Source of the DNA: Syntrophales bacterium
Lineage (GTDB): Bacteria; Desulfobacterota; Syntrophia; Syntrophales; UBA6807
Assembly (NCBI GenBank): GCA_040767195.1
Contig: JAXGPA010000004.1
Span: 173,738 to 237,737, forward strand
DNA length: 64,000 bases
Direction of reading: 5' to 3'
Below the pieces are notes generated by a model, which saw only the letters and a list, made by a program, of their open reading frames with translations, was not told the origin of the DNA and ran no database searches. Shown here piece by piece: positions 47,253 through 61,104 of the stretch; position 1 is the first letter of the stretch, and each line of letters begins with the position of its first letter. The translations under genes and the position numbers were made by a program.

Positions 47253-47299
47253 AGACTATATATAGTAGTCATATTCATACAAGACACTATATATTGTGC
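47253..47299. promoter_or_regulatory. Tandem NrdR boxes upstream of nrdD
   Basis: AGACTATATATAGTAG (47253-47268) and ACACTATATATTGTGC (47284-47299), starts 31 bp apart, matching the NrdR consensus acaCwAtATaTwGtgt. Confidence 0.9.
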
Positions 47300-47337
47300 T
47301 TTACAGCGAAATCATTTCAAAGAGGGGGGAACAGAAC

Positions 47338-49455
47338 ATGTATGAATCGATCCAGAAACGGGATGGCCGGCTCGTTCCATTCGACGCCTCCAAGATCACC
47401 ACCGCCATCGCCAAGGCGGGGGGCGCCACGGGGGAGTTCGACGAGAAAATGGCCCGGCGGCTCACCGTTCGGGTGTTGAACCGGGCGGAAGACCTTTTCG
47501 GGAACCGGACCCCCTCGGTGGAGGAAATCCAGGACATTGTGGAGGAGGTCCTCCTGTCTTCCACCTACCGGATGACGGCGCGGGCCTACATCATCTACCG
47601 GGAGCAGCACGCCCGGCTCCGGGAGCTGGCGGACCGCATGGAGGTGGACCTGGTCGACAAGTATCTCAAGAAAAAGGACTGGAAGATAAACGAAAACAGC
47701 AACATGGATTACTCTCTCCAGGGGCTGAACAACTACATCTCCTCGGAGGTGAGCAAGATTTACTGGCTCAATGAAATCTACCCGCCGCAAGTCCGGAAGG
47801 CCCAGATGGAGGGGGATTTCCACATCCATGACCTGAGCATCCTGTCCGTCTACTGCGTCGGCTGGGACCTCCTCGACCTTCTCCGGGAAGGCTTCAGGGG
47901 GGTCTCGGGGAAGGTGGAAAGCCGGCCGGCAAAGCATTTCCGGAGCGCCCTGGGCCAGGTGGTGAATTTTTTCTACACCCTCCAGGGAGAGGCGGCGGGC
48001 GCCCAGGCCTTTTCCAGCTTCGACACCCTGCTCGCCCCCTTCATCCGGTATGACCGCCTGACCTACCCGGACGTCCGCCAGGCCCTCCAGGAATTCATCT
48101 TCAACATCAACGTTCCCACCCGGGTCGGGTTTCAGACCCCCTTCACCAACGTCACCCTGGACCTCACCGTCCCCGTCCATTTCGCCGACGAGCACGTCAT
48201 CATCGGGGGACAGCCGAAAGACGAAAAATACGGCGATTTCCAGAAGGAGATGGACCTCTTCAACCGGGCCTTCCTGGAGGTCATGGCGGAGGGGGACGCC
48301 CGGGGCCGGGTCTTCACCTTCCCCATCCCCACCTACAACATCACCCGGGACTTCAACTGGGACAACGGAAACCTGGAAGGCCTCTGGGAAATGACGGCAC
48401 GATACGGCGTCCCCTACTTTTCAAATTTCATCAACTCGGACATGAAGCCCGAAGACGCAAGGAGCATGTGCTGCCGTCTCAGGATAGACAACCGGGCCCT
48501 GAACTGTGAGGAAAAACAGGCCCTGGAGATGCGGGGCGGGGGCCTTTTCGGGTCTCACCCGCTCACGGGCTCCATCGGAGTGGTCACCCTGAATCTCCCG
48601 AGAATCGGGTACCTGGCCTCGACGGAGGAAGACTTCCTGAACCGTCTCGGGAAAGTCATGGACACGGCCCGGGAAAGCCTGGAAATCAAGCGCAAGGTCC
48701 TGGAAAAATTCACCGACGGGAATCTTTACCCTTACACCAAGTATTACCTGAGAGGCGTGAAGGCCCGTTTCGGCCAGTACTGGAAGAACCATTTTTCCAC
48801 CATCGGCCTCGTGGGAATGAACGAGGCGTGCCTCAACCTCATGAATGAAAACATCGCGTCACCGGAAGGTCACCGGTTCGCCCGGAAGGTCCTCGACTTC
48901 ATGCGGGACCGCCTCCTCCGGTTCCAGGAGGAAACGGGGAACAACTTCAACCTGGAAGCCACCCCGGCGGAGGGGACGTCCTACAGCCTCGCCCGGATCG
49001 ACCGGAAACGCTACCCCGACATCGTGTGCGCCAACGGAAACGGACACGGCGGAAACGGGCACGAGCCTTTCTACACGAATTCGAGCCAGCTGCCGGTACA
49101 GTTCACCGACGACCTGTTCGAAGCCCTCGACCTCCAGGACGACATCCAGACCCGGTACACGGGGGGAACGGTGTTTCACATTTTCGCCGGCGAGCAGATA
49201 AGCGACTGCACCGCCGTGAAGAGGCTGGTCCGGAAGGTCTGCGAAACCTATTCCCTGCCCTATTTCACCTTCTCCCCCACCTTCAGCGTGTGCCCCGATC
49301 ACGGCTATCTCCGGGGAGAGCAGGCGGCCTGTCCCGCCTGCGGGGCCTCCTGCGAGGTCTATTCCCGGGTCGTGGGGTACCTGCGCCCCGTCAACCAGTG
49401 GAACAAGGGAAAGCAGGAAGAATTTTCCCTGAGGAGGACCTTTTCCCTTCAGTGA
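47338..49455 (+). CDS. nrdD: Anaerobic (class III) ribonucleoside-triphosphate reductase with ATP cone
   Basis: ATP cone IQKRDG...VEEIQDIVE; HIHDL, SMCCRL, EATPAEG, YTNSS, CPDHG/CPAC, glycyl radical loop RVVGYLRP. Confidence 0.96.
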   Translation: MYESIQKRDGRLVPFDASKITTAIAKAGGATGEFDEKMARRLTVRVLNRAEDLFGNRTPSVEEIQDIVEEVLLSSTYRMTARAYIIYREQHARLRELADRMEVDLVDKYLKKKDWKINENSNMDYSLQGLNNYISSEVSKIYWLNEIYPPQVRKAQMEGDFHIHDLSILSVYCVGWDLLDLLREGFRGVSGKVESRPAKHFRSALGQVVNFFYTLQGEAAGAQAFSSFDTLLAPFIRYDRLTYPDVRQALQEFIFNINVPTRVGFQTPFTNVTLDLTVPVHFADEHVIIGGQPKDEKYGDFQKEMDLFNRAFLEVMAEGDARGRVFTFPIPTYNITRDFNWDNGNLEGLWEMTARYGVPYFSNFINSDMKPEDARSMCCRLRIDNRALNCEEKQALEMRGGGLFGSHPLTGSIGVVTLNLPRIGYLASTEEDFLNRLGKVMDTARESLEIKRKVLEKFTDGNLYPYTKYYLRGVKARFGQYWKNHFSTIGLVGMNEACLNLMNENIASPEGHRFARKVLDFMRDRLLRFQEETGNNFNLEATPAEGTSYSLARIDRKRYPDIVCANGNGHGGNGHEPFYTNSSQLPVQFTDDLFEALDLQDDIQTRYTGGTVFHIFAGEQISDCTAVKRLVRKVCETYSLPYFTFSPTFSVCPDHGYLRGEQAACPACGASCEVYSRVVGYLRPVNQWNKGKQEEFSLRRTFSLQ

Positions 49456-49473
49456 GGCCTGTCGGCTGAAGAA

Positions 49474-50175
49474 ATGAAAATCGGAGGATTACAGAAGGTT
49501 TCCCTCATCGATTACCCGGGAAGGATCTCCGCCGTCGTTTTCACCCAGGGGTGCAACTTTCGCTGTCCCTACTGCCACAACCCCGGCCTTCTTCCCGCGG
49601 ACCCCCCGGCGGCCCTTCTCGCCGAGGAAGACGTCCTGTTCTTCCTGGAAAAGAGGCGTGGGCGCCTTGATGGCGTCACCGTCTCCGGCGGCGAACCGAC
49701 GATCCAGGCCGGCCTGGCGGGGTTTTTGAGAAAGGTGAAATCCCTGGGGTATCCCGTGAAACTCGACACGAACGGGTCCGTCCCGGCCGTCCTGGCGGCC
49801 CTCCTGGCGGAGGGCCTGGTGGACTACGTGGCCATGGACGTCAAAGCCCCGCCGGCGAAATACGGGATCCTCTCGGGAAGCGCCGTTCCCTTTTCCCGCA
49901 TCCGGGAAAGCGCCGATATCCTGAGAAACGCCGGGACACCCTGCGAGTTCAGGACCACGGTGGTCCCCTCTCTCCTCGACGAGGCGGATCTCGCGGGCCT
50001 CATGGCGGCCATCGGCCCCGTCCCCGGCCCCGCCGGCCGCTTCGTCCTCCAGAGATTCCTGCCGTCCAACACCCTGTCTCCCGACCTCGGCCGGGAGAGG
50101 GGGTCGAGCCTGGACGAGCTCCGGGACCTGGCGGCCCGGCTCTCCCCCGGGGGGACGGGGATTCTCGTCCGCTGA
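49474..50175 (+). CDS. nrdG: Anaerobic ribonucleotide reductase activating radical SAM protein
   Basis: SLIDYPG, GCNFRCPYCHN, SGGEPT, KLDTNG, FRTT; directly after nrdD. Confidence 0.93.
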   Translation: MKIGGLQKVSLIDYPGRISAVVFTQGCNFRCPYCHNPGLLPADPPAALLAEEDVLFFLEKRRGRLDGVTVSGGEPTIQAGLAGFLRKVKSLGYPVKLDTNGSVPAVLAALLAEGLVDYVAMDVKAPPAKYGILSGSAVPFSRIRESADILRNAGTPCEFRTTVVPSLLDEADLAGLMAAIGPVPGPAGRFVLQRFLPSNTLSPDLGRERGSSLDELRDLAARLSPGGTGILVR

Positions 50176-50187
50176 GGGGGGCCTTCG

Positions 50188-50610
50188 TCAGGATCGGCCG
50201 GACACCTGGACCACGAGAGACCGCCGCCTCGGGCGGTTGTCGAAGTCGATGAAAACGATCTGCTGCCACGTCCCAAGGGTCATCCGCCCCCCCGAGACGG
50301 GCACCGCCAGGGACGGGCCGACAAGGGACGCCCGCACATGGGAGTGGCCGTTCCCGTCTCCCCACCGGGCGTCGTGGTGATAGGAAATACCGCGGGGAAC
50401 CAGGCGCTCCAGGGCCTCCTTCAGGTCCCGGACGACCCCGCTTTCATACTCGATGGTGGTGAGCCCCCCCGTGGAACCGGGAACAAAGACAATAACCGTC
50501 CCCTCGATGATGCCCGCTTCCCCGATCCGGGCCTCGACAGCGGCGGTGATATCCACGACGTCATCGTTTCCAGCCGTGGAAAGTTCGATCTCCATCGTTC
50601 TGATTTTCAT
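50188..50610 (-). CDS. yjbQ: YjbQ/UPF0047 family protein
   Basis: GSTGGLTTIE, HDARWGDGNGHSH, LGTWQQIVFIDFD. Confidence 0.9.
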   Translation of the reverse strand: MKIRTMEIELSTAGNDDVVDITAAVEARIGEAGIIEGTVIVFVPGSTGGLTTIEYESGVVRDLKEALERLVPRGISYHHDARWGDGNGHSHVRASLVGPSLAVPVSGGRMTLGTWQQIVFIDFDNRPRRRSLVVQVSGRS

Positions 50611-50791
50611 GAAACCTCCTCACGGAAACCTTCTTTCAATGTCCGCCCTCTATCACGGGAAGCCGCCCGGGGCAAGACCGGCGGGGAAAAACGGCCTTGC
50701 CAACCCTTCGTTTATCTGATAGGCATAGGTCGTCGTTTCTGACGAATAAGAAGGGGTGTGTGCCTTTATCTTTCAAGGCGGAAGCAGGATC

Positions 50792-51787
50792 ATGGACGAA
50801 GCGGAAACAATCGATCTGGCCAGGGAGGTGCTCCGGATCGAGGGGGAATGCCTCCTCAACCTGGTGAACCATGTGGACGGTCAGTTCGCCGAGGCCGTGG
50901 AGATGATCTGCCGATCCAAGGGACGGGTGATCGTGACGGGCATCGGCAAATCGGGTCTCATCGGCAAGAAGATCGTGGCGACCCTGACCAGCACCGGAAC
51001 GCCGGCGGTCTTCCTCCACCCCGTGGAAGGGCTTCACGGCGACCTGGGTATCGTTACCCGGGAGGACGTTCTCCTGGCCATCTCCCACAGTGGCGAGACG
51101 CCGGAGCTGACGGCCCTCACGTCGAGCGTCCGGGAGATCGGGGCCCCCATCATCGCCCTCACGGGAAACCCCCGCTCCAGCCTGGCGAAGCACAGCGACC
51201 GAATCATTCACGTGGCCGTGGACAGGGAAGCCTGTCCCTTCGGCCTGGCGCCCACGTCAAGCACCACCGCGGCCCTGGCCATGGGAGACGCCATCGCCAT
51301 CGCCCTGATCCGCCGGAAAAATTTCACCGAGAGGGATTTTTTCAGGTTTCACCCGGGAGGCAACCTTGGGCAGAGGCTCATGGCCCGGGTCCGGGACGTC
51401 ATGATCGGCATTGAAAAAGCCCCCCGCGTCCTGACAGGAACGCCGGCCCCGGAGGCCGTCCGGGTCATCGACGACATGAACGTGGGGTTCGTTCTCATCA
51501 CGGACGGGGAAAACGTCCTCCAGGGAATTCTCACGGACGGGGACGTCCGTCGCGCCGTCCGGCGGGGCATCGATTTCAAGGGGCTCGCCGTGGACGACCT
51601 GATGACCCGGTCACCGAAAGTGGCCGACCCCGGTGCGTCCCTCGCCGAAACGATCGAGTTCATGCAGCGGGCGGAAATCACCGCCCTCGCCGTGGTGAGC
51701 GCCGGCGGGCGCCTGGACGGCTACATCCACCTCCACGACATCCTGGGACGGGGGGGCACCGTGAAGATCTCCCTGGGACCTTTTTAA
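50792..51787 (+). CDS. kdsD: KpsF/GutQ family arabinose-5-phosphate isomerase (SIS plus CBS)
   Basis: GIGKSG, HGDLG, SHSGET, EACPFGLAPTSST, FHPGG, TDGD. Confidence 0.92.
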   Translation: MDEAETIDLAREVLRIEGECLLNLVNHVDGQFAEAVEMICRSKGRVIVTGIGKSGLIGKKIVATLTSTGTPAVFLHPVEGLHGDLGIVTREDVLLAISHSGETPELTALTSSVREIGAPIIALTGNPRSSLAKHSDRIIHVAVDREACPFGLAPTSSTTAALAMGDAIAIALIRRKNFTERDFFRFHPGGNLGQRLMARVRDVMIGIEKAPRVLTGTPAPEAVRVIDDMNVGFVLITDGENVLQGILTDGDVRRAVRRGIDFKGLAVDDLMTRSPKVADPGASLAETIEFMQRAEITALAVVSAGGRLDGYIHLHDILGRGGTVKISLGPF

Positions 51788-51827
51788 AAAAAACCGGCTC
51801 TCCCCCGCGCAGCGGAAAGGTTCTCCC

Positions 51828-52352
51828 ATGCCTCTTTACGAAGTGGACGGTAAAAAACCCCGGATATCCCCGGACAGCTACGTTCACCCCGATGCCGTCC
51901 TCATCGGAGACATCACGGTGGGCCGGCGGACCTTTATCGCGCCGGGGGTCGTCATCCGGGCCGACGAGGGCCCCGTCATCATCGGAGACGACACGAGCGT
52001 CCAGGACAACGCGGTGATCCACATCAACCCCGGGGCCCGGGTGGTTATCGGAAACGAGGTCATCGTGGGGCACAGCGTCATCCTCCACGACGCCGAAGTT
52101 CACGACCGGTGCGTCATCGGCATGGGGGCCATCCTGCTTTTCGGCGCCGTCTGCGAGGAAGGGGTGTTCGTCGCCGCCGGATCCGTCGTCCCCTATGACA
52201 TGCGGATCCCCGCGGGGAAACTCGCGGCGGGGAATCCCGCCAAAGTCGTCAAGGACGTGACGGAACCGCAAAAGCAGTACGCCCGCTTCGGGATCGAAGC
52301 CTATCTCAGGCTCGTCGACCTCTACCGGGACACGGCCCGTAAAATAACGTGA
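51828..52352 (+). CDS. Gamma carbonic anhydrase family (hexapeptide repeat) protein
   Basis: VLIGDI, VIRAD, VQDNAVIH, VGHSVILH, IGMGA, GNPAKVVK. Confidence 0.9.
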   Translation: MPLYEVDGKKPRISPDSYVHPDAVLIGDITVGRRTFIAPGVVIRADEGPVIIGDDTSVQDNAVIHINPGARVVIGNEVIVGHSVILHDAEVHDRCVIGMGAILLFGAVCEEGVFVAAGSVVPYDMRIPAGKLAAGNPAKVVKDVTEPQKQYARFGIEAYLRLVDLYRDTARKIT

Positions 52353-52498: not shown

Positions 52499-53413
52499 AT
52501 GAATGTCATCCGGTTCGCCGCTTCCCTGAAACGACGGCTTTTCCCTCCCGCCGTTCTGAGGCGCCTGGTACGAGAAGGAACGTATCAGCCCCGGCGTCCC
52601 GCCTGTTCCCGTCAACCGGGGGACACGGACATTTTCACGGATGTGGAAGACCCCCGTTCCCTTTTGCGGTCCTTCGGTCCCGCCTGGGACGCCCGCTTCA
52701 AAGACCTCTTTCTTCCCCATCACGAGATTCTCATAAAAATCAACCTGAACACGGCGGACCCCTACCCGGCGTCCACGGACCCCGGGATGCTTGCCGCCCT
52801 CATCGACTTTCTTCAGGAAAAAGGCTGCCGAAATATCCGGGTCGGGGACTGCTCGTCCATCCGGGCCCTCCCCACCGCGAAGGTGGCCCGGAAAGCAGGC
52901 ATCCCGGAGGCCCTTTCGGGCAGGGCTCCCTTCATCCCTTTCGATGACGGGCCCTGGGTGTCCATTCCCGTGGACGGGTACTTTCTGAAGCAGGTCACTG
53001 TCCCCCTGGCGGCCGTGACGGCGGACCGGCTCATTTTTCTGGCCAATATGAAAACCCACAACGAATCGGATTTTTCCCTGGGGATGAAACTTTCCGTGGG
53101 GCTCCTCCACCCCCTGGAGCGATACCCCCTTCACCGGGACCACCTCCGGGAAAAGATCGCCGAACTCGTTCTCGCCGTCCCGCCCGACCTGACCCTCATC
53201 GACGGCCGAACGGCCTTCGTCACCGGGGGACCGGACAGGGGCGAGACGGCCCGTTGCGGCGCCGTCGTCGTCGGCACCCATGTCGTCCAGGCGGACCTGG
53301 CCGCTTACGGCATCCTTTACGAGGCGAAAAAAAGGCTCGACCGCCTCGGTGCCTTCACGGAAGACCCCTTCGGGATGGTCCAGTTTGCCCACGCGAAAAG
53401 GGTTGTCCTGTGA
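52499..53413 (+). CDS. DUF362 domain protein
   Basis: ILIKINL....P.PASTDP, IRVGD, ANMKTH, SLGMK, PDLTLIDG, GGP motifs; no fused ferredoxin domain. Confidence 0.8.
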   Translation: MNVIRFAASLKRRLFPPAVLRRLVREGTYQPRRPACSRQPGDTDIFTDVEDPRSLLRSFGPAWDARFKDLFLPHHEILIKINLNTADPYPASTDPGMLAALIDFLQEKGCRNIRVGDCSSIRALPTAKVARKAGIPEALSGRAPFIPFDDGPWVSIPVDGYFLKQVTVPLAAVTADRLIFLANMKTHNESDFSLGMKLSVGLLHPLERYPLHRDHLREKIAELVLAVPPDLTLIDGRTAFVTGGPDRGETARCGAVVVGTHVVQADLAAYGILYEAKKRLDRLGAFTEDPFGMVQFAHAKRVVL

Positions 53414-54858
53414 AATTTCTTTTCATCACCCCTCTCACCGATTACGGGGTCCGCCCCATGAACACCTGGGCTCCCGTGGGAATCCTTTCCATGGCGGCCT
53501 CCCTGAAAGGGGAAGGCCACGAGGCGGCCCTTTTCGACCGCCATGCCCTTTTCTCCAGTCACGGTCTCGGCCGGGACAGGATCGACGGGGCCATGGCCGA
53601 AGCGGTCCGGACCTTCCGGCCCGACGTCATCGGGTTCCAGACACTCTCCCCTCTGATCCACGACACGGTAAGCTGCGCCGCCCTCCTGCGGCCTCTCTTT
53701 CCCGGCGTCATGATCGCCGGGGGTCACCATGGAACGGCCCTGCCCGAATTGACGCTGCGAAGGATAGAAGGGCTCGACGGCGTCGTCGCCGGCGAGGGTG
53801 AACAGGCCCTGGTCCGCTTCGCCCGGGGGGAAGACCCCCGGGACATCCCCGGCTTCTGGTGGAAAGACCGGGACGGCGGGATCCGGCACACCCCGCCGGT
53901 CCAGGTGGCCCCCCTGGACGACCTGCCCTTTCCCGACTACACCCTCCTGGACGGACGCTTTTATCTCCAGAGAAACCACAGCGCCATCCGGGGGCACTTC
54001 CTCTCCTCCCTTTGCGTCGTCACCTCCCGGGGGTGTGTCAGGCGCTGCGACTTCTGCTGCGAGTCCCTCACCTACGGCCGGGGGGTCCGGTTTCACAGTG
54101 CCCGCTACGTGGCTGAAGGCGTCCGGGAACTTCTCTACCGCTACCCCATCGACGGCCTTTATGTTCACGACAACGATTTTCTCATCAACCGGAAAAGGGC
54201 GGAAGAAATCTGCGAGCATTTCAGCGCCATCAGGCGGAACCGTCCCTTCCTGTTTTCCATCCAGGCCCGGGCCGAGCGCGTCGACAGCGACATGGTCCGG
54301 CGCCTGAAGGCCGCCGGCTGCGCCCTCATCGAGATCGGCGTGGAATCCGCCCTTCAGGAGAATCTCGACAGCGTTCGAAAGGAAACGACGGTGGCCGAGG
54401 CCGAGGAGGCCATCGCCCGGTGCCGGGAGGGAGGGATTTCCGTCCACGCCAACATGATCACGGGTTTCGAGGGGGAAACGATGGAAAAACTGGAAAAGGA
54501 AATCGCGTGGATGAAAAAAGTCCGGCCGGACACGTTCTCCTGGTTCCCCCTGGAAATTCACCCGGGCACGGCCCTCTACGAGAGAAGAGGGGACGGGTTT
54601 TTCGAACGATCCCCGTGGACCCCGGAAAACATCCGGACATTCTACCGGGGCGCCTCGCTGTCCCCGATTCCCCCGGCGGAAAAAGGACGGTGGATGAAAA
54701 GCCGTTACCAGCCCTTGAGGAGACGGGCCTATTTTCGCCACCTTTTCAGAAAAAATTACCCCCGGAAACTCTTTCCCCTGCTTTTCATGAAAGGGCGGCG
54801 GGAAATCCTGAAACTCCGCGACCGGTTCGACCGGTTCAGGAACCCGGGATCGCCCTGA
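53410..54858 (+). CDS. Cobalamin-binding radical SAM protein
   Basis: P.GILSMAA, PDVIGF, AGGHHGT, GEGE, DDLPFPD; TSRGCVRRCDFC (CxxxCxxC); D.F, IGVES; GTG start overlapping the DUF362 stop. Confidence 0.9.
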   Translation: MKFLFITPLTDYGVRPMNTWAPVGILSMAASLKGEGHEAALFDRHALFSSHGLGRDRIDGAMAEAVRTFRPDVIGFQTLSPLIHDTVSCAALLRPLFPGVMIAGGHHGTALPELTLRRIEGLDGVVAGEGEQALVRFARGEDPRDIPGFWWKDRDGGIRHTPPVQVAPLDDLPFPDYTLLDGRFYLQRNHSAIRGHFLSSLCVVTSRGCVRRCDFCCESLTYGRGVRFHSARYVAEGVRELLYRYPIDGLYVHDNDFLINRKRAEEICEHFSAIRRNRPFLFSIQARAERVDSDMVRRLKAAGCALIEIGVESALQENLDSVRKETTVAEAEEAIARCREGGISVHANMITGFEGETMEKLEKEIAWMKKVRPDTFSWFPLEIHPGTALYERRGDGFFERSPWTPENIRTFYRGASLSPIPPAEKGRWMKSRYQPLRRRAYFRHLFRKNYPRKLFPLLFMKGRREILKLRDRFDRFRNPGSP

Positions 54859-54907: not shown

Positions 54908-55993
54908 CTAAGTTCCGGACCCGGGCCGCTTCCTCACCCGGTACCGGTAAAAGGTCCCCAGGGCTTTCACTCGTTCTGCCCAGTCGTCGATGAGAAAAAA
55001 CTTGACCGCCCGCTCCGCCCACACCGTGAGCGGTCGCGACCGCAGCGCCAGCCTCTCCGCCGGGAAAAGACCCCGTGTCACCACCCCGGGTTTCAGGGCC
55101 TCCAGGACCGGCGCGGGAACGGCCAGCCCCAGGGGGTCCCGGAGGAATCGCAGGGGGTGATAAAGGGCGCTCCCGATGCCCTGTTCCCCCGCCTGGGTCA
55201 GCACCGCCTTCCAGTCCACGGGCCGTTTTTTGTCCTCCATGATGAGGCCGATGTCCACGAGGCTGATGAGCGGGCTGAAGTGGTGGTGGGACATGAGATG
55301 AACACACTGGTAGGGTAGAAGAAGGGTCGGGTCCAGGCCGAGGAAGGAGGCGCCGCCGCCGTTTCCGATTTCGTGAACGCGCTTCCAGGTGTCATCACCG
55401 CTCAAAAAAGGCTTTCTCCCCCAGTAGAGGGTCACCGTTTCCCACTGAAGATCCACGGAAAGGCCGGGAATGAGGGCATTCATCAAGGGAACGGCCTTCA
55501 CCGCCGGGTCGATGAACCGGACCTTTGTCGGGTCCTCGGGAACGAACCCCCGGTCGCCGAGAAGCTTCCCGGCCCGGTCAAAGTCGTCGAATCGGATGAG
55601 GATGTCCAGGTCCCCGTAAGGCCTCAGGTAGGGGGGGTCGTAATATTCATGGGCGATGGCGGGGCCCTTGAGGACGATGAAGGGTATGTTCCGGCGGTGG
55701 AACGCTTCTCCCAGGGTCTGCAGGTGAGCTTCGAGAAAGAGGGACCGGGCCGAGCTTTCGCGGGTCCCCTCTTTCAGCGCGCCGGCGAAGGAAGGCGGAA
55801 GAGACGCCAGGAGGCCTTCCTTCGAAAGAACCCGGCAGGCCACGGGGATGAGCCTGTGGAAACGAAGCAGCGCCAGGAGGCGGTCCCAGCCCGCCGCCGA
55901 CGGGAAGTCGGGCAGACCGGCCTCCGCTCCCGGGACCCGGAGAAAGGACCGGAGGATCCGGATCAAGAAACGCCTTTCCGGGGTGAGGGTCAT
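54908..55993 (-). CDS. Nucleotidyltransferase family protein (NTP_transf_5-like)
   Basis: IVLKGPAIA..YY....RPYGDLDILI signature; VDLQW; H...HH...LVDI. Confidence 0.85.
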   Translation of the reverse strand: MTLTPERRFLIRILRSFLRVPGAEAGLPDFPSAAGWDRLLALLRFHRLIPVACRVLSKEGLLASLPPSFAGALKEGTRESSARSLFLEAHLQTLGEAFHRRNIPFIVLKGPAIAHEYYDPPYLRPYGDLDILIRFDDFDRAGKLLGDRGFVPEDPTKVRFIDPAVKAVPLMNALIPGLSVDLQWETVTLYWGRKPFLSGDDTWKRVHEIGNGGGASFLGLDPTLLLPYQCVHLMSHHHFSPLISLVDIGLIMEDKKRPVDWKAVLTQAGEQGIGSALYHPLRFLRDPLGLAVPAPVLEALKPGVVTRGLFPAERLALRSRPLTVWAERAVKFFLIDDWAERVKALGTFYRYRVRKRPGSGT

Positions 55994-57051
55994 TGGAGAA
56001 GGTCCCTGACAAGCCGATGGACCTCCAGGACATCCCGGCCGTAGTCCAACTCGTAACAGTCCATGGTTTCCACCATCCCGCAGAGCATGTGAAACTGCTT
56101 CGCGGCCACGTCGGGGTCCATGACGAGAAGGCTGTGCGGCAGGAGCCGGGCGACGGCCTCAGTTTTTGAAATCCCGCGAAGGCGGCTTCTCTTTTCGTCC
56201 ACGACCCGGGGGAAGAGGAGCACCCGGGGGGTGGTCCGGTCCCTGGTGATCCCGGGGTAGACGCTCTCCACTGAAAATTTTCTCTTCCGCAGCCCCGTTC
56301 GAAGAACAGACGGATCGAGCTCCCGAAGCTCCGGAAAGAGGGAGATTGTATTTTCCGTCACGTCGATGTCCTCGGGAAAGGAGAGAATCTCGTAGCCGCC
56401 GTCGGTGCTCCTGAGGAAAGGCCTGTCGTCGCTCAGGTACTTGAAGCCCCCGTGAAGAAGGGAGACGCACAGCGTGGTCTTGCCGCTCCCCGAAAGGGCG
56501 GGAACCAGGACCCCTTTTCCGTCTTCCGTCACGGCGGCGGCATGAATGAGAAAGTAGTCCCGGGCCCGGCACATCTCCGACAACCCGATGAGAAACATGA
56601 AGTTGGAGAGTATGGCGGGATGGACCGCTTCCGGTTCCGGCACGAAGCCGAGGCCCAGTCCCTCCTTCGTGTCGAGAAAAAGGCATCCCCGGGCACCGAA
56701 ATCGGCCATGAAGGCCTTGTTCCAGGTCCGGTAGATGAGCCGCGTTTCCAGGAGACTCGAAAAGCCGTGTTCGTCGTCCTCCCGGGAGTCGAAAAGAACG
56801 GTCCCCTCGTTCAGAAACAGCTCGTGATAAGGAAACCTGTCCGGTTCCTCTTTCATCAGGTAGAAAGTCATTTCCGGGGACGGCGCTTCCTCCCGGCGGA
56901 AATAACCGAGAAGACCCTCCACGGCTTCCAGGATCATTCCCGAATCGGACGAAACGGCGACGGGAAGACCGTGCATGTCATACCGTCTCTCCGTCAATTT
57001 TCGGACATCCAGGGGTTCCAGGGCCGCCTTGAAAAGGCTGTCTTTCGTCAT
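55990..57051 (-). CDS. HprK-related P-loop kinase
   Basis: IHAAAV....KGVLV.ALSGSGKTTL and YLSDD motifs of the HPr kinase C-terminal family. Confidence 0.8.
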   Translation of the reverse strand: MTKDSLFKAALEPLDVRKLTERRYDMHGLPVAVSSDSGMILEAVEGLLGYFRREEAPSPEMTFYLMKEEPDRFPYHELFLNEGTVLFDSREDDEHGFSSLLETRLIYRTWNKAFMADFGARGCLFLDTKEGLGLGFVPEPEAVHPAILSNFMFLIGLSEMCRARDYFLIHAAAVTEDGKGVLVPALSGSGKTTLCVSLLHGGFKYLSDDRPFLRSTDGGYEILSFPEDIDVTENTISLFPELRELDPSVLRTGLRKRKFSVESVYPGITRDRTTPRVLLFPRVVDEKRSRLRGISKTEAVARLLPHSLLVMDPDVAAKQFHMLCGMVETMDCYELDYGRDVLEVHRLVRDLLQ

Positions 57052-58061
57052 CTATCACTCCACATGGCTTTCGTAATCCGGCACAATTCCTGCGACGGAA
57101 CCAGGGCGTTCCCGTGCTCCATGAATCCCATGCCGGGACAGAACCGGCACCGGTCTCTGAAAGAGCAGGCGAGGCACGACGGGTAGTCCCTTTCCGTCAC
57201 GGCCCGCCATCGCGCCAGGACCGGTGACGTGTTCCATATTTCATGAAAACTCTGAGTCTTGAGGTTCCCGCAACGCCAGCGGAGAACCGTGCAGGGAAAG
57301 ACATCGCCGTCCGACCCGACACAGCACGAGTCGCTGCCGGCGTGGCAGAGAAAGCTCTCCTGCGGTTCCGTTTCGTTTTCCTTTGCCCGGAGAGGGTCCG
57401 AGGATGCCTTCGAAGACAGATTCCGTATGTCCCGCGCGGGAAGCCGCAGGGAGTCCACGGAGCGCTCCCTGTCCGCCGGTGCGAAGATCCTGAAGGTGGA
57501 ACGGAGCGGGGTGCCCAGGCCCTCCGTGAGGCGCCGAAGGCGCCCCTGTTCCTGGAAATTCAGGGTCATGACCACGGTTTTCACCACCACCGAAATACCG
57601 TCTTCGCTCATCCGGCGCAGATTGTCGACGGCCGCATCGAAAGACCCGGGTTTTCCTGTCACCCTGTCATGGGTTTCGGGGGCGGCCCCGTAGAGGCTCA
57701 CCTCCACCGCCAGCGGCGGCCTTGCCGCGAGCAGGCTTCGGGTTTCCCGCCCCAGGAGGGTCCCGTTTGTGTAAAGGGTGACAGCGAATCCCATCTCATG
57801 GGCTTCCCTGTAAATATCCCTGAAGTCCTTCCTGAGGGTCGGCTCCCCGCCCGTGAAGGTGAGCTTCAGGCATCCGGCCTCCTTGAGCTGTTCCAGGATG
57901 GACCTGACGGCCGCCCCCGTCAGGCCGTCCCGGGTGCCCCGGGACTGGTAGCAGTGGACGCAGGACAGGTTGCACCGGGAGGTGAGTTCGAAGACCGTGT
58001 TGAAAGGGATCCTCCGATTCCGGATCCCCTCGAGAAATTCCTGGAATGACGTTTCCTTCAT
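57048..58061 (-). CDS. Radical SAM/SPASM domain protein (PqqE-like putative peptide maturase)
   Basis: ELTSRCNLSCVHCY, TGGEP, YTNG, VSLYG; SPASM cysteines CHAG...DGDVFPC...GNL...CLACSFRDRCRFCPG...C. Confidence 0.92.
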   Translation of the reverse strand: MKETSFQEFLEGIRNRRIPFNTVFELTSRCNLSCVHCYQSRGTRDGLTGAAVRSILEQLKEAGCLKLTFTGGEPTLRKDFRDIYREAHEMGFAVTLYTNGTLLGRETRSLLAARPPLAVEVSLYGAAPETHDRVTGKPGSFDAAVDNLRRMSEDGISVVVKTVVMTLNFQEQGRLRRLTEGLGTPLRSTFRIFAPADRERSVDSLRLPARDIRNLSSKASSDPLRAKENETEPQESFLCHAGSDSCCVGSDGDVFPCTVLRWRCGNLKTQSFHEIWNTSPVLARWRAVTERDYPSCLACSFRDRCRFCPGMGFMEHGNALVPSQELCRITKAMWSDR

Positions 58062-58228
58062 GATTGATGAACTCGTGAAATCGAAAAATCTTCAGTTACC
58101 GACGGCTTTGTAAAAAGATCCAGAGGCAAGGCGCCCAAATCCCGAGGAATGAGACGTACTTATTGGTACGTCGCAATGACGAGGGATGAAGGGCAACGCA
58201 GCATATGGTCTTTTTACAAAGTCGTCAT
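58062..58228. mobile_element. 167-bp non-coding palindromic MITE/REP-like insertion
   Basis: Inverted repeat GACGGCTTTGTAAAAAGA (58101-58118) / TCTTTTTACAAAGTCGTC (58209-58226), 17/18 match; inner hairpin GACGTAC-N6-GTACGTC; flanked by direct repeat TCATGATTG (58058-58066 and 58225-58233). Confidence 0.75.
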
Positions 58229-58680
58229 GATTGCCCGTCAGGGTAGACATACAAGGACGCGAAACTGCCGCCGGGGTCGGTTCTCTCCAGGAAAGGGGCG
58301 CCGTCCAGGATGAGCCAGCTGTGACCGTCCAGGGATTCCCCGTTTTTTCTGATCCCGTAGGCGATCCCGACGGGAACCCCCTTGCGGCGATAATGGGAGA
58401 AAAGGGCGAGAGACCGGAAAAGACAGGGCCGCTTGACCCTGAAGCACCCGATGAGGATGAAATCCAGGAGATCCCGGTAGATTTCCGCCCTTTTCCGCTC
58501 TTCCCCGCTGAGAACGTGATTCTTTTCCCCTTCACCGTCCAGGGATCTCAGAAGATCAGGGAGGGAACGGTGGTGAAGCCGGCAGGAAATACCGACGAGG
58601 TCCACCAGAATGGAAAAGGCGGCCGCACTCGCGCCGGGCTGGAGAAGGCAAAGGATTTTCCGCCTTCTTCTTCTATTCAT
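58225..58680 (-). CDS. Lasso peptide B2-type leader peptidase (transglutaminase-like)
   Basis: PCLFRSLAL...GIAYGIRK.....DGHSWLILDG, the Cys/His/Trp pattern of the Transglut_core3 family. Confidence 0.88.
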   Translation of the reverse strand: MNRRRRRKILCLLQPGASAAAFSILVDLVGISCRLHHRSLPDLLRSLDGEGEKNHVLSGEERKRAEIYRDLLDFILIGCFRVKRPCLFRSLALFSHYRRKGVPVGIAYGIRKNGESLDGHSWLILDGAPFLERTDPGGSFASLYVYPDGQS

Positions 58681-58951
58681 GAACCTCGACGAGACCTTCC
58701 TTCAACAAGTCCTGGACGATCTCCAGGAGATCCTTCCGGGAAACCTCGCTGTCCACATCATACCGTTCCAGGAGCGCACCGTGAATTTCCGAGAGCTTCC
58801 GGCGGCCGTCAAGGGATTCCCAGAAAAACCGCCCGACCTCGTTCACGGTGTAATAGTAACCGGTGCCCAGGTTCAGAAGGACACCGTCTTCGTCCACCTG
58901 CCGCCAGGCCACTTTCCCGCTTTTTCGAAAGACCGCCTCCCAGGGGTCCAT
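58673..58951 (-). CDS. PqqD family RiPP recognition element (B1-like)
   Basis: AGGAG RBS; VAWRQVDEDGVLLNLGTGYYYTVNEVGRFFWESLDG...YDVD....KDL..IVQDLLKEGLV. Confidence 0.92.
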   Translation of the reverse strand: MDPWEAVFRKSGKVAWRQVDEDGVLLNLGTGYYYTVNEVGRFFWESLDGRRKLSEIHGALLERYDVDSEVSRKDLLEIVQDLLKEGLVEVHE

Positions 58952-59154: not shown

Positions 59155-59766
59155 ATGAAAAGTCCGCGGGCCGTGCTTTTCGACTACGGCGGCGTTCTTG
59201 CCGAAGAGGGGTTCGCCCTGGGCCTTCGGGCCATCGCCGACGTGAACGGCCTTCCCGGCGATGATTTTGTCAAAAAAGGCCACGACCTGGTCCACGAGAC
59301 GGGGTTTGTTACAGGACAGGTTCTCGAAAAAACATACTGGGAAACGGTCCGGGCCGAAACGGGGATTTCCGGCGGCGACGATGCCCTGCGACAGGAAATC
59401 CTCTCCCGTTTCACTCTCCGGAGATGGATGATCGATCTTCTCGGGGATCTCCGGGACAGGATTCCCCTCCTGGGGATCTTGAGCGACCAGACGAACTGGC
59501 TCGAGGAACTCAACGAACGGGACCGTTTCTTTCGCCACTTCGACCGGGTGTACAACAGCTTTTACCTGGGAAAAAGCAAGCGGGACCCCGCCCTGTTCGA
59601 CCATGTTCTTCGGCTTCTCGAAATCCCGGGGGAAGACGTCCTCTTCGTGGACGATCACGCCGGAAACTGCGAAAGAGCAACGCAGGCAGGCATGAAGACG
59701 ATTCATTTTACCGGAAGGCGCCCGTTCCTGTCGGAATTGGAAAAGCGGGTCCCCTCCTTCAAATGA
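59155..59766 (+). CDS. HAD-superfamily hydrolase (YihX-like phosphatase)
   Basis: VLFDYGGVL, ILSD, GKSKRDP..F, FVDD...N. Confidence 0.85.
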   Translation: MKSPRAVLFDYGGVLAEEGFALGLRAIADVNGLPGDDFVKKGHDLVHETGFVTGQVLEKTYWETVRAETGISGGDDALRQEILSRFTLRRWMIDLLGDLRDRIPLLGILSDQTNWLEELNERDRFFRHFDRVYNSFYLGKSKRDPALFDHVLRLLEIPGEDVLFVDDHAGNCERATQAGMKTIHFTGRRPFLSELEKRVPSFK

Positions 59767-59793
59767 GGGCCGAGCCGTAAAAAGGAGCATCCA

Positions 59794-60075
59794 ATGACCA
59801 GCGGACCCAAGGAAATCAAGGTGAATTTCCCCCCCTCGCTCCACGGGGGGGTTTACGCGAACAACACCGTCATCACCCACACCAGGGAGGAGTTCATCCT
59901 GGATTTCATCATGGCGGCCCCGCCCGCCGGCTCCGTCACCGCCCGGGTCGTCGTGAGCCCCGGCCACGTGAAGCGCCTTTTAGCCACCCTGATGGAAAAC
60001 ATTTCCCGGTACGAGCAGAAATACGGGGAAATCCCCAAGGCGGAAGAACCCCCGGGGACGTTGCGGATCAATTGA
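59794..60075 (+). CDS. DUF3467 domain protein
   Basis: GVYANNTVITHTREEFILDF, ARVVVSPGHVKRL...L.ENI..YE.KYGEI. Confidence 0.85.
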   Translation: MTSGPKEIKVNFPPSLHGGVYANNTVITHTREEFILDFIMAAPPAGSVTARVVVSPGHVKRLLATLMENISRYEQKYGEIPKAEEPPGTLRIN

Positions 60076-60122
60076 CCCGGTTTCGCCGGGCCTTCCCGAT
60101 CCCAGGCAGGCGGGCTCAAAAA

Positions 60123-61067
60123 TCATCTTCCCGGGGATTCCCCCGGCGGGGGACGGAAAACCAGGGCCCGGACAGCGTGGTAATCCTCCCCGTCGATCCA
60201 GTGAATCTCTATTCCCCGCCTTTCCATCCGCCGGAACCAGGTCTCCTGGCGCTTGGCAAACTGGTGAATCCGGGTGTTCAGGACCTGAAACATCTCGTCA
60301 AGGGAAATCCGGCCCTGAAGATGGAGGCTGACCCACCGGTACTCGAGACCCAGCCGGTGAAGCTGTTCCCAGCTCACGCCGCTCCGGCGGAGGCCCCGCA
60401 CTTCCTCGATCATGCCCTCCCGGATCCGTTTTTCCAGCCGCCTTGTGATTCGCTTCCGGAGGACCGGCCGGTCCCAGCGCACCCCGATGACGAGGGGCCG
60501 GCTGACCGTTGCCGCGGGGTCTCCCGCCTCCCGTCCCTTTCCGGACCCTTCGGCAATTTCGATGGCCCGGATCAGTCGACCCCGATCCCGAAGATCCGTC
60601 GTATTGTGAAGGGCGGGGCGGAGAGCCAGGAGCCGCCTTTCCAGGGCGCCGTCATCAAGACCTTCCAGTTCCTCCCGAAGGGCTGGGTTTTCCGGGACTT
60701 CCGCGAGAGCGTAGTGGAGGAGAACCGATTCGAGATAAAGACCCGTCCCCCCCACGAGGACAGGAAGAACCCCCCTGGATCGCAGGCGTGTAAAGCAGGC
60801 CGTGAATCGCTTGCGGAATTCGAAAACACTGAACTCTTCCAGGGCCGGATCGGCGACGTCAATGAGATGGCAGGGAATCCTGCGCCCCTGGACGACGTAT
60901 TCCGACAGATCCTTCCCCGCTCCGATGTCGAGTCCCTGGTAAACCTGGCGGGAGTCGGCGGAAATGATCTCCGACCCAAGTTCGTAAGCGAGCCGCGCGG
61001 CGAGCCTGGTTTTTCCGGAGGCCGTCGGCCCGAGGATGACGATGAGATCCCAGGGTTCCCGGGTCAT
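60123..61067 (-). CDS. miaA: tRNA dimethylallyltransferase, copy 2 (MiaA paralogue)
   Basis: LGPTASGKT, ISADSRQVYQGLDIGAGKDL.EY, VGGTGLY, LHNTTD, GLEY, IHQFAKRQETWF. Confidence 0.9.
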   Translation of the reverse strand: MTREPWDLIVILGPTASGKTRLAARLAYELGSEIISADSRQVYQGLDIGAGKDLSEYVVQGRRIPCHLIDVADPALEEFSVFEFRKRFTACFTRLRSRGVLPVLVGGTGLYLESVLLHYALAEVPENPALREELEGLDDGALERRLLALRPALHNTTDLRDRGRLIRAIEIAEGSGKGREAGDPAATVSRPLVIGVRWDRPVLRKRITRRLEKRIREGMIEEVRGLRRSGVSWEQLHRLGLEYRWVSLHLQGRISLDEMFQVLNTRIHQFAKRQETWFRRMERRGIEIHWIDGEDYHAVRALVFRPPPGESPGR

Positions 61068-61104
61068 GGAAAGATTCGGGGGGTCGCTTTTCACGGACGC
61101 CTCG

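Follow-up and report, generated by a model that had tools for sequence, protein, structure and literature searches.

The window, a stretch of 64,000 nucleotides from a Syntrophales bacterium, carries an operon that is read here, with a probability of about 0.75, as part of a cyclase-free, lasso-derived pathway that would make linear phosphorylated short peptides, with a radical SAM/SPASM enzyme (SPASM rSAM) predicted to act on the subset of them that carries an LGC motif. The product of this pathway has not previously been described. The features concerned are given below, with G000 denoting the genome of the window itself, G001 a genome of the same genus and L-numbers related loci.

58673..58951, minus strand: discrete RRE (PqqD/B1), 92 aa (PF05402, 71.7 bits)
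58225..58680, minus strand: lasso-type B2 leader peptidase, 151 aa (PF13471, 44.2 bits)
58062..58224, no strand: MITE-like repeat, 163 bp, at the junction of the B2 stop and rSAM start, outside the pathway
57048..58061, minus strand: accessory radical SAM/SPASM enzyme, 337 aa (PF04055 + PF13186)
55990..57051, minus strand: HprK-like peptide kinase, 353 aa (TIGR04352, 80.6 bits, cutoff 200)
54908..55993, minus strand: NTP_transf_5 nucleotidyltransferase of the PsmN/BsfN/LppN type, 361 aa (PF14907, 150.9 bits)
53410..54858, plus strand: accessory B12-dependent radical SAM enzyme, 482 aa (PF02310 + PF04055)
52499..53413, plus strand: accessory DUF362 protein, 304 aa (PF04015)

ORF calls and profile searches agree that the five operon genes are real and intact, all of them lying on the minus strand within the limits given by a preliminary description of this DNA, and its assignment of PqqD, B2, SPASM rSAM and PF14907 families was borne out by matches to PF05402, PF13471, PF04055 + PF13186 and PF14907. 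The 8-nt and 4-nt overlaps it listed hold for RRE/B2 (8 nt), rSAM/kinase (4 nt) and kinase/nucleotidyltransferase (4 nt), but B2 and the rSAM do not overlap, as the 163-bp repeat lies between them. G000 contains this repeat in 16 near-full-length copies, each type of end flanked by a 5-bp duplication, and it has no match in Rfam; the 99%-identical locus L019 has no repeat at the B2/rSAM junction and L020 has a variant copy there. Placed ahead of the rSAM start, it may in this strain break the coupling to the genes downstream.

As boundaries, 54908..58951 proved too narrow, for they miss the DUF362 and B12-radical-SAM genes, a pair that overlaps by 4 nt, is convergent on the operon and accompanies the cassette in relatives. 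Orthologs of the B12-radical-SAM enzyme are found beside the cassette in L008, L017, L021, L027, L029, L030, L032, L037, the L048 group and L059, with none found in G001, and DUF362 genes in L008, L017, L021, L027, L029, L037, the L048 group and L143; the Atlas annotation of the latter protein is DUF362 only.

The RRE, B2, kinase and nucleotidyltransferase occur together in 21 lineages (a lineage being a 90% kinase cluster), and the five-gene set, suspected earlier of recurring, is present in 8 lineages other than the species of the window. These four genes are the conserved core of the pathway, with the SPASM enzyme and the DUF362/B12-radical-SAM pair accessory to it. The SPASM enzyme had been proposed as a class-defining stand-in for the cyclase, a role that is unsupported because G001 keeps RRE-B2-kinase-nucleotidyltransferase at the same site without it and because only 2 of 10 precursors in G000 contain Cys.

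Within G000 the operon RRE is the single PF05402 gene, and no further B2, kinase or nucleotidyltransferase copies were found by tblastn. The RRE has invariant N37 and D74, which align to N33 and D70 of LppB (PDB 9x8z), residues required there for binding of a YxxP leader (PMC13381572). In B2 the residues C86, H120 and W122 are invariant across 20 homologs, and the protein scores 30.4 bits on NF033537, slightly below the cutoff of 33. The kinase has no match in Pfam; its profile aligns with the His/P-loop/DD stretch of HPr kinase (PDB 1jb1), and H170, K191, T192, D208 and D209 are invariant in 21 homologs with the spacing of H148/K169/S170/D186/D187 in BsfK (PMC10368454). The nucleotidyltransferase has no solved relative detectable by sequence.

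The operon is not the orphan it was called, because ten precursors are found elsewhere in the same genome. These are dispersed ORFs of 37-50 residues on three other contigs, in which a YxKPxL leader of lasso type precedes a short and hypervariable core. All five that were inspected at the DNA level have ribosome-binding sites, terminator-like hairpins follow the precursor groups, and one of the ten passes the NF033521 lasso_leader_L3 model (23.9 against 19). In relatives the same precursors are arrayed in tandem, up to 9 together, within the cassette or next to it, and are found in the gap directly after the B12-radical-SAM gene. The leader consensus is YxKPxLTKHxxLxDITA, with Tyr, Pro and Leu at -17, -14 and -12; Thr at -2 is found in 110 of 144 precursors family-wide and in 2 of the 10 in G000. 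Taking in the related lineages, there are 139 distinct cores with a median length of 8 aa. Ser lies at core position 3-5 in 100 of these, against a mean of 55.5 and a maximum of 72 in 2000 shuffles, and Ser or Thr in 125 (shuffle mean 77.5, maximum 97), although 2 of the 10 G000 precursors have neither there.

Given a leader, RRE, B2, kinase and nucleotidyltransferase that all match the Bsf/paeninodin lasso toolkit, it might be supposed that this is a decayed or split lasso locus that has lost its cyclase, or whose cores are cyclised in trans by an asparagine-synthetase homolog. G000 does encode two PF00733 proteins, and an AsnS-like gene adjoins one distant kinase locus (L100). The core length nearly excludes such a reading: at a median of 8 aa the cores lack the length of a lasso, and a lactam to Asp/Glu at 7-9 is possible with a tail of at least 5 in only 4/139 cores (7/139 with a tail of at least 3). 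No cyclase is present in the window, and an asparagine-synthetase-like gene, sought with the two PF00733 proteins of G000 as queries, was found in 0 of 86 closer related loci, many of which are on short contigs. The two proteins themselves, one of which scored as AsnB whilst the other sits in a glycosyltransferase neighbourhood, obtain 186 and 116 bits against NF033535, a model for lasso cyclases with the far higher cutoff of 525. None of five whole genomes has a match over that cutoff, and G023, which is 100% complete, has none at E<=1e-10. With the genes intact and conserved over 21 lineages, a decayed or split locus is extremely improbable, in keeping with the earlier view of a cyclase-free RiPP pathway.

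In the preferred reading of linear phosphorylated peptides, one RRE, B2, kinase and nucleotidyltransferase likely process all ten G000 precursors to peptides of 5-15 residues. The RRE would very probably bind the YxKPxL leader. By the precedent of Ser3 in BsfK and LppK, there is good reason to expect that the kinase adds one or more phosphates to the Ser/Thr found at core position 3-5, counted from the leader, and an equally good one to expect that B2 cuts off the leader to leave a free, uncyclised N-terminus; both sites are predicted from sequence, and the leader cleavage and phosphorylation proposed previously fit the precursors found. The nucleotidyltransferase is somewhat favoured to cap the phosphate, either with a hexose as PsmN does or with an NMP, a step that is uncertain because LppN was inactive in a heterologous host (PMC13381572). 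The B12-radical-SAM enzyme, perhaps with DUF362, is only tentatively suggested to C-methylate some cores.

The peptides could instead be disposable carriers, on whose phospho-Ser a small metabolite is built by kinase activation and nucleotidyltransferase ligation, then freed by proteolysis or passed to cell-surface glycan synthesis. In a fosfazinomycin preprint (PMC13622209), an RRE, kinases and a nucleotidyltransferase make a small molecule on a 22-mer, and LPP clusters are sited in capsule loci (PMC13381572). There is no dedicated exporter, none recurring among the related loci or lying in the window's cluster and an ABC gene being near 4 lineages only, and flippase genes adjoin L007, L032, L035 and L143. 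However, a carrier has no need for as many as ten differing cores in one genome, nor for a C-terminal motif linked to a radical SAM enzyme, and no glycan genes lie beside the window's cluster, which makes this quite unlikely. For the linear products, cores that are hypervariable and present in multiple copies point to a small combinatorial library, and signals or recognition tags would be the most plausible guess as to its role.

The substrates of the SPASM enzyme are suggested by a pairing across lineages. The window's enzyme falls in its own clade of 12 rows in the tree, and this clade is accompanied by a C-terminal LGC[TS][RKL] motif in 10 of 10 lineages, whilst the motif occurs in 0 of 13 without the clade, the absence being judged at the locus only in 8 of those 13. 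G001 lacks both the enzyme and the motif though it is nested in an rSAM-bearing clade (99/95 support). On well-supported branches alone the pairing reduces to 2 independent contrasts (sign test p = 0.5). LGC is found in 17 of 139 cores and in 2 of the 10 G000 precursors. It is likely that the enzyme acts on this module and modifies only precursors ending in LGC[TS][RKL], and because the motif sits a variable 5-8 residues from Ser/Thr the chemistry is probably local. The enzyme has invariant C30/C34/C37 together with the SPASM cysteines C239, C257, C296, C299, C305, C308 and C327, with C246 in 12 of 13. Its best profile matches (NirJ2, MftC, AhbD) are all far under cutoff, no sactisynthase model was passed, and its fold neighbours SuiB, SkfB, BlsE, PqqE, anSME and CteB, which share 15-25% identity with it, are of no help in discriminating. 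A thioether from Cys to a nearby residue has close to an even chance; oxidation of the Cys, or an oxidative reaction at the C-terminus akin to those of anSME/MftC, is a less likely outcome, and some other target is unlikely.

The core pathway could also stand with the SPASM enzyme unrelated to LGC, the pairing reflecting shared ancestry and the enzyme acting on all cores, on the phospho- or nucleotidyl group or on a cofactor. The two contrasts and the distant best profiles would allow this, as would the eight SPASM cysteines, which may suffice to ligate both clusters completely, with no position left for the thiol of a substrate. Thioether-forming SPASM enzymes are modelled with an open cluster site. 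Zero exceptions across 23 lineages speak against it, as do the two nearest distant homologs, L080 and L152, which likewise adjoin Cys-containing precursors, so that it is very unlikely.

Substrates are now assigned to an apparently substrate-less cluster, and peptides of 35-45 residues would suffice to examine the transfer product of PF14907, the action of the SPASM clade on LGC and the use of lasso B1/B2 as leader machinery for linear products in general. In the LPP study the PF14907 enzyme showed no activity, and its part in the Psm and Bsf pathways lacks an explanation. Natural minimal (G001) and extended versions are built-in controls, and a kinase, protease and radical enzyme that tolerate hypervariable cores would serve peptide engineering. 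The products may act as signals in syntrophic anaerobes. Genome mining centred on cyclases overlooks such clusters, and precursor searches confined to the neighbourhood overlook the G000 substrates. A broader proposal, doubtful as a whole, is a separate RiPP class found in anaerobic members of the Desulfobacterota and in other uncultured bacteria. In it a single leader system of lasso origin would serve a genome-wide combinatorial library of phospho-capped peptides of 4-15 residues, and swappable radical SAM enzymes would each recognise a C-terminal tag of their own (LGC[TS][RKL] in the window's clade, a terminal Gly in a second) and install chemistry new to RiPPs, for instance an oxidised Cys or a very small thioether ring (Gly/Leu-Cys).

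No characterised product had been known to the preliminary description for this combination, a novelty that stands in part: a cyclase-free family with RRE, HprK and NTP transferase, the linear polyphosphorylated peptides (LPP), represented by lppA-K-B-S-D-N in Paenibacillus alginolyticus, was published in 2026 (Popov et al., Nat Commun 2026, PMC13381572), with another peptidase and without a radical SAM enzyme. Both systems have a discrete RRE with the YxxP-binding Asn/Asp pair, an HprK-like kinase, an NTP transferase, no macrolactam cyclase, a conserved leader with a variable core and Ser near the core N-terminus, and LppK phosphorylates Ser3 to give a linear product (PMC13381572). LPP clusters differ in using a SipW-like SpI peptidase rather than the Cys/His B2, no SpI gene being found among the cluster or flanking ORFs and no unlabelled neighbour of such kind recurring, and in having an MsbA exporter, which the window's cluster lacks. 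They have 1-3 precursors of 35-200 aa, with a 45-aa core in the studied case, against up to 10 with a median core of 8 aa here, and are described as Bacillota-restricted, whereas the hosts here are of Desulfobacterota type. Their leader (YxxPxVLxHQxIxFETxxS) shares only YxxP with the window's family, which adds plug-in SPASM rSAM, B12-rSAM, DUF362 and formyl- or methyltransferases; the main text on LPP has 0 uses of 'radical', 'rSAM', 'SPASM' or 'transglutaminase' (PMC13381572).

Pseudomycoidin and paeninodin (PsmK, PsmN; PMC6993621) share the HprK-like kinase and PF14907-type enzyme, and PsmN, which adds +162/+324 Da (hexose) to phospho-Ser, is the sole functional precedent for the nucleotidyltransferase (PMC6993621); there the product is a lasso modified at its C-terminal Ser, with cyclase and exporter present and no rSAM. 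SynChlorMet, GeoRSP, mycofactocin and HPr-rel-A systems (NCBIfam) likewise join PqqD to SPASM rSAM and/or HprK-like genes in anaerobes, but their models are far under cutoff (ScmD 35.9/100, ScmC 26.5/125, ScmE 103/400, GeoRSP 110/400, MftC 130/265, HprK_rel_A 80.6/200). The feature pair of sactipeptides and ranthipeptides, a SPASM rSAM and a Cys-containing precursor, is present, as are the lasso features of B1 RRE, B2 Cys protease and YxxPxL leader. According to PMC10368454, the phosphorylated lasso peptide cluster Bsf of Bradymonas sediminis (bsfA, B1, B2, C, D, K, N) is also deltaproteobacterial and has B1, B2, kinase and nucleotidyltransferase, a BsfA leader with Tyr-17/Pro-14/Leu-12 that tolerates non-Thr at -2, and in BsfK an RRE-enhanced kinase of identical His/Lys/DD spacing that phosphorylates core Ser3/Thr3. 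Bsf has a cyclase, an ABC exporter and one lasso-competent precursor, whereas the window's system is without both genes, carries radical SAM enzymes in addition and has cores of insufficient length for threading. By analogy, the pathway of the window would work like that of LPP, and like the Bsf lasso pathway minus its cyclase.

The operon in the window is real and is larger than first described, and its substrates are identified. The five co-oriented genes reported in the preliminary description are all intact open reading frames on the minus strand, at the coordinates given there, but the extent assigned to the system was too small. The features of the locus are as follows:

52499-53413, plus strand, DUF362 gene, convergent on the operon
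53410-54858, plus strand, B12-radical-SAM gene, convergent on the operon
54908-55993, minus strand, nucleotidyltransferase (NT; PF14907 match)
55990-57051, minus strand, HprK-like kinase (TIGR04352 at 80.6 bits, below cutoff; HPr kinase matches in PDB)
57048-58061, minus strand, radical SAM/SPASM enzyme (rSAM; PF04055 and PF13186 matches)
58062-58224, MITE-like element of 163 bp with an internal inverted repeat and a 5-bp target duplication
58225-58680, minus strand, B2 peptidase (PF13471 match)
58673-58951, minus strand, RRE (PF05402 match)

The flanks (47296-52352 and 59155-61094) carry ordinary genes that are syntenic in G001, a genome of the same genus, which we take to be an anaerobic ribonucleotide reductase with its activase, a KdsD/GutQ-like isomerase and a hexapeptide-repeat protein on one side and a HAD hydrolase, a DUF3467 protein and a MiaA-like protein on the other. 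ESM Atlas gave the family name for DUF362 and nothing more, and a promoter/terminator scan and an Rfam search returned nothing informative. The MITE-like element fills the gap between B2 and rSAM, recurs across the genome in 16 near-full copies and many partial ones, and is polymorphic, being absent from the B2/rSAM junction of a 99%-identical locus (L019). Lying between the B2 stop and the rSAM start, it may reduce expression of the genes downstream.

Among homologs C86/H120 of B2 and H170/K191/D208/D209 of the kinase are invariant, as are C30/C34/C37 and seven SPASM cysteines of the rSAM, with an eighth SPASM cysteine found in 12/13. The RRE keeps an Asn and an Asp that align to N33/D70 of LppB, residues required for binding of Tyr-type leaders according to excerpts of PMC13381572. 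The host is probably a Syntrophales bacterium, as a 69%-identical kinase is recorded under that name, and the nearest named loci are from Desulfobacteraceae and Deltaproteobacteria MAGs.

The operon had been called an orphan, a label that no longer applies since ten precursors lie elsewhere in its genome. The lead was a 32-residue ORF with a YxKPxL leader adjoining the homologous cluster of a related locus (L007), and a genome-wide HMM search then gave ten such ORFs on three contigs:

contig C10, seven precursors, starts at 104195, 104352, 108426, 108565, 108929, 109077 and 109384
contig C7, two precursors, starts at 254162 and 254313
contig C9, one precursor, start at about 65502

The ten score 59.8-81.3 bits with a profile seeded on those same ten, the next match scoring 9.1, and a second profile seeded exclusively from other genomes found the same ten. 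Purine-rich ribosome-binding sites precede all five precursors inspected at the DNA level, where hairpin/T-run sequences were also seen after precursor groups. None of the ten adjoins an RRE, B2, kinase or NT gene, and the operon's RRE is the only one in the genome. A precursor within the window was considered and rejected, the nearby short ORFs having no leader motif and none of the ten HMM matches falling on the window's contig. In relatives the precursors form tandem arrays inside the cluster, often between the NT and B12-radical-SAM genes, a gap that is only 49 bp in the window. Contigs from four RNA-library runs, all belonging to a single anaerobic-digester study, match three C10 precursor genes with 0 mismatches, but are not counted as evidence of expression because adjoining DNA is covered too and the contigs carry neither strand nor level. 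The same genome also has two small contigs of atypical GC, C5 (5.6 kb, GC 0.54), which encodes a SPASM-like rSAM, and C4 (2 kb, GC 0.46), that are possibly mobile DNA or bin contamination.

Core peptides were set to start 17 residues from the leader Tyr, following the validated register of BsfA (Tyr-17, Pro-14, Leu-12; excerpts of PMC10368454), which gave 139 distinct cores from 144 precursors, with a median length of 8 and a range of 4-32 residues. Thr(-2) is found in 110/144 precursors across the family and 2/10 in this genome. With related lineages entering more than once, Ser occurs at core positions 3-5 in 100/139 cores (2000 shuffles: mean 55.5, maximum 72) and Ser or Thr in 125/139 (mean 77.5, maximum 97), the latter also in 8/10 of the genome's own precursors. 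This pattern matches the Ser3 phosphorylation, measured from the leader, carried out by BsfK and LppK.

The cores also bear on whether this is a decayed lasso locus, which is very improbable given that only 4/139 are lasso-compatible. In line with the earlier claim that the cyclase is missing, an asparagine-synthetase-like ORF is found in 0/86 annotated loci, many of which are no more than short contigs, with the two PF00733 proteins of the genome itself serving as queries; such an ORF is present at L100, a more distant locus outside the 86. A cyclase acting in trans was rejected, as no match in five whole genomes passed the lasso-cyclase cutoff.

The 86 loci comprise 80 plus L007, L008, L016, L017, L102 and L133, with lineages defined as 90% kinase identity groups. 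RRE, B2, kinase and NT occur together in 21 lineages, and the exact five-gene set, whose recurrence had been proposed as a check, is found in nine, including the window's species. The syntenic site of G001 has RRE-B2-kinase-NT and one precursor, without the SPASM, DUF362 or B12-radical-SAM genes, and in other lineages the place of the window's accessory genes is taken by a formyltransferase, a methyltransferase or an enzyme of a second SPASM clade. The pathway core is thus four genes (RRE, B2, kinase and NT), and the remainder are plug-ins. The distribution is patchy, with kinase matches in 11/339 genomes of the class (E<=1e-15; 3 strong), 3/401 of a phylum sample, and 6/351 and 1/27 genomes of two sampled orders; the weak matches in G1032, G989, G886 and G782 are accompanied by a YxKPxL-family precursor in 0/4.

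A further link is between the window's rSAM, which falls in a 12-row clade (SH-aLRT 95), and cores ending in LGC[TS][RKL] plus 1-2 residues, of which there are 17, including two in this genome. Such a core is found in 10/10 lineages that have the clade and a visible precursor and 0/13 without the clade, a count from which L045 and L046 were omitted as short contigs and L080 for its different rSAM branch, and in which five of the 13 were searched as whole genomes and eight judged for absence at the locus only. The five (G001, G459, G023, G120 and G866) have 20 precursors, no LGC motif and no rSAM ortholog, the ortholog search of G023 and G120 being by single-protein query only. On the kinase tree two independent contrasts lie on starred branches, both agreeing (p = 0.5), and four when all branches are counted. 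The pairing gives a strong lead but no proof that the clade acts with the LGC motif, and it is improbable that the enzyme is unrelated to it.

The chemistry is not discriminated by the AlphaFold model (pLDDT 80), whose Foldseek neighbours are generic SPASM proteins. Matches to NirJ2, MftC and AhbD profiles are far under cutoff, and membership of SynChlorMet, GeoRSP or mycofactocin was rejected on scores under cutoffs. MftC-like decarboxylation of a C-terminal Tyr is disfavoured because the residue after the motif is not fixed (F, L, S, V or Y), and LGC as a lipobox was rejected, a hydrophobic signal region being absent. A plasmid search with the rSAM gave 633 records, all below 60% identity (best ~30%), and no ortholog.

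Other variants were seen. The second SPASM clade, of about 365 aa, occurs in L040/L043/L044/L047/L049/L062/L072/L079, L041, L051 and L067, with two copies in L047, and is accompanied by Gly-ended cores (L040 group 16/28, L051 3/3, L041 2/3, L065 group 1/4; rSAM-less L048 group 0/34), possibly pointing to a reaction directed at a C-terminal Gly. A formyltransferase (L047:4893-5678) and a methyltransferase (L051:9141-9980) are inserted amid precursors. L080:856-6455 reads RRE-B2-rSAM-precursor-kinase-NT-ABC exporter, with a 22-residue core of two Cys and two Trp, whilst L068, L069 and L070 are ordered RRE-precursor-kinase-B2 and their cores open with a short conserved Thr/Ser motif and continue into a long tail rich in Arg/Lys. 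L147:104-8322 (G782:C93) is another cyclase-free variant with a leader of different type, having an RRE, a 48-aa YxxP precursor, kinase, NT, radical-SAM-like genes, B2 and an ABC exporter. L152:1809-4320 (G866:C251) is a separate small cassette of RRE, SPASM rSAM distantly related to the window's, Cys-rich YxKP-leader precursor and HprK-like kinase, the predicted core beginning with a Gly-Cys-containing stretch. Distant kinase homologs, some of about 680 aa (L083-L098, L018, L101-L106), occur with NT and several B12-radical-SAM enzymes or glycosyltransferases, without B2 or a YxKPxL-family precursor.

The best reading, to which we give a probability of roughly three in four, is that the RRE would capture the leader, the kinase phosphorylate a core Ser/Thr and the NT cap the phosphate, with radical tailoring dependent on the core motif and B2 then cleaving to leave a linear product. 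The only functional precedent for the NT is PsmN, with +162/+324 Da (excerpts of PMC6993621), and LppN was inactive in a heterologous host (excerpts of PMC13381572). That the peptides instead carry either a small metabolite or a glycan donor has a precedent in excerpts of PMC13622209 but is unlikely.

No description was found of a B2-type cyclase-free cluster with a radical SAM enzyme, in a search that had subscription journals, bioRxiv supplements and some other supplements, which may hold the YxKPxL family, outside its scope. LGCTRF and SynChlorMet had no literature match, and one supplementary file of PMC10288494 no term match. Term searches for radical SAM and transglutaminase in the main text of PMC13381572, and for 'Syntroph' in six of its supplementary files, were negative. 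Its excerpts report a capsule-locus link for the linear polyphosphorylated peptides (LPPs), echoed by polysaccharide flippase-type genes that four lineages have beside their cluster or within it (L007:3048-4511, L032:9028-10569, L035:5180-6778, L143:5855-7426). Judged from the same excerpts, the window's system falls outside the LPPs on peptidase, exporter and leader consensus, yet they are the closest kind known and it works alike.
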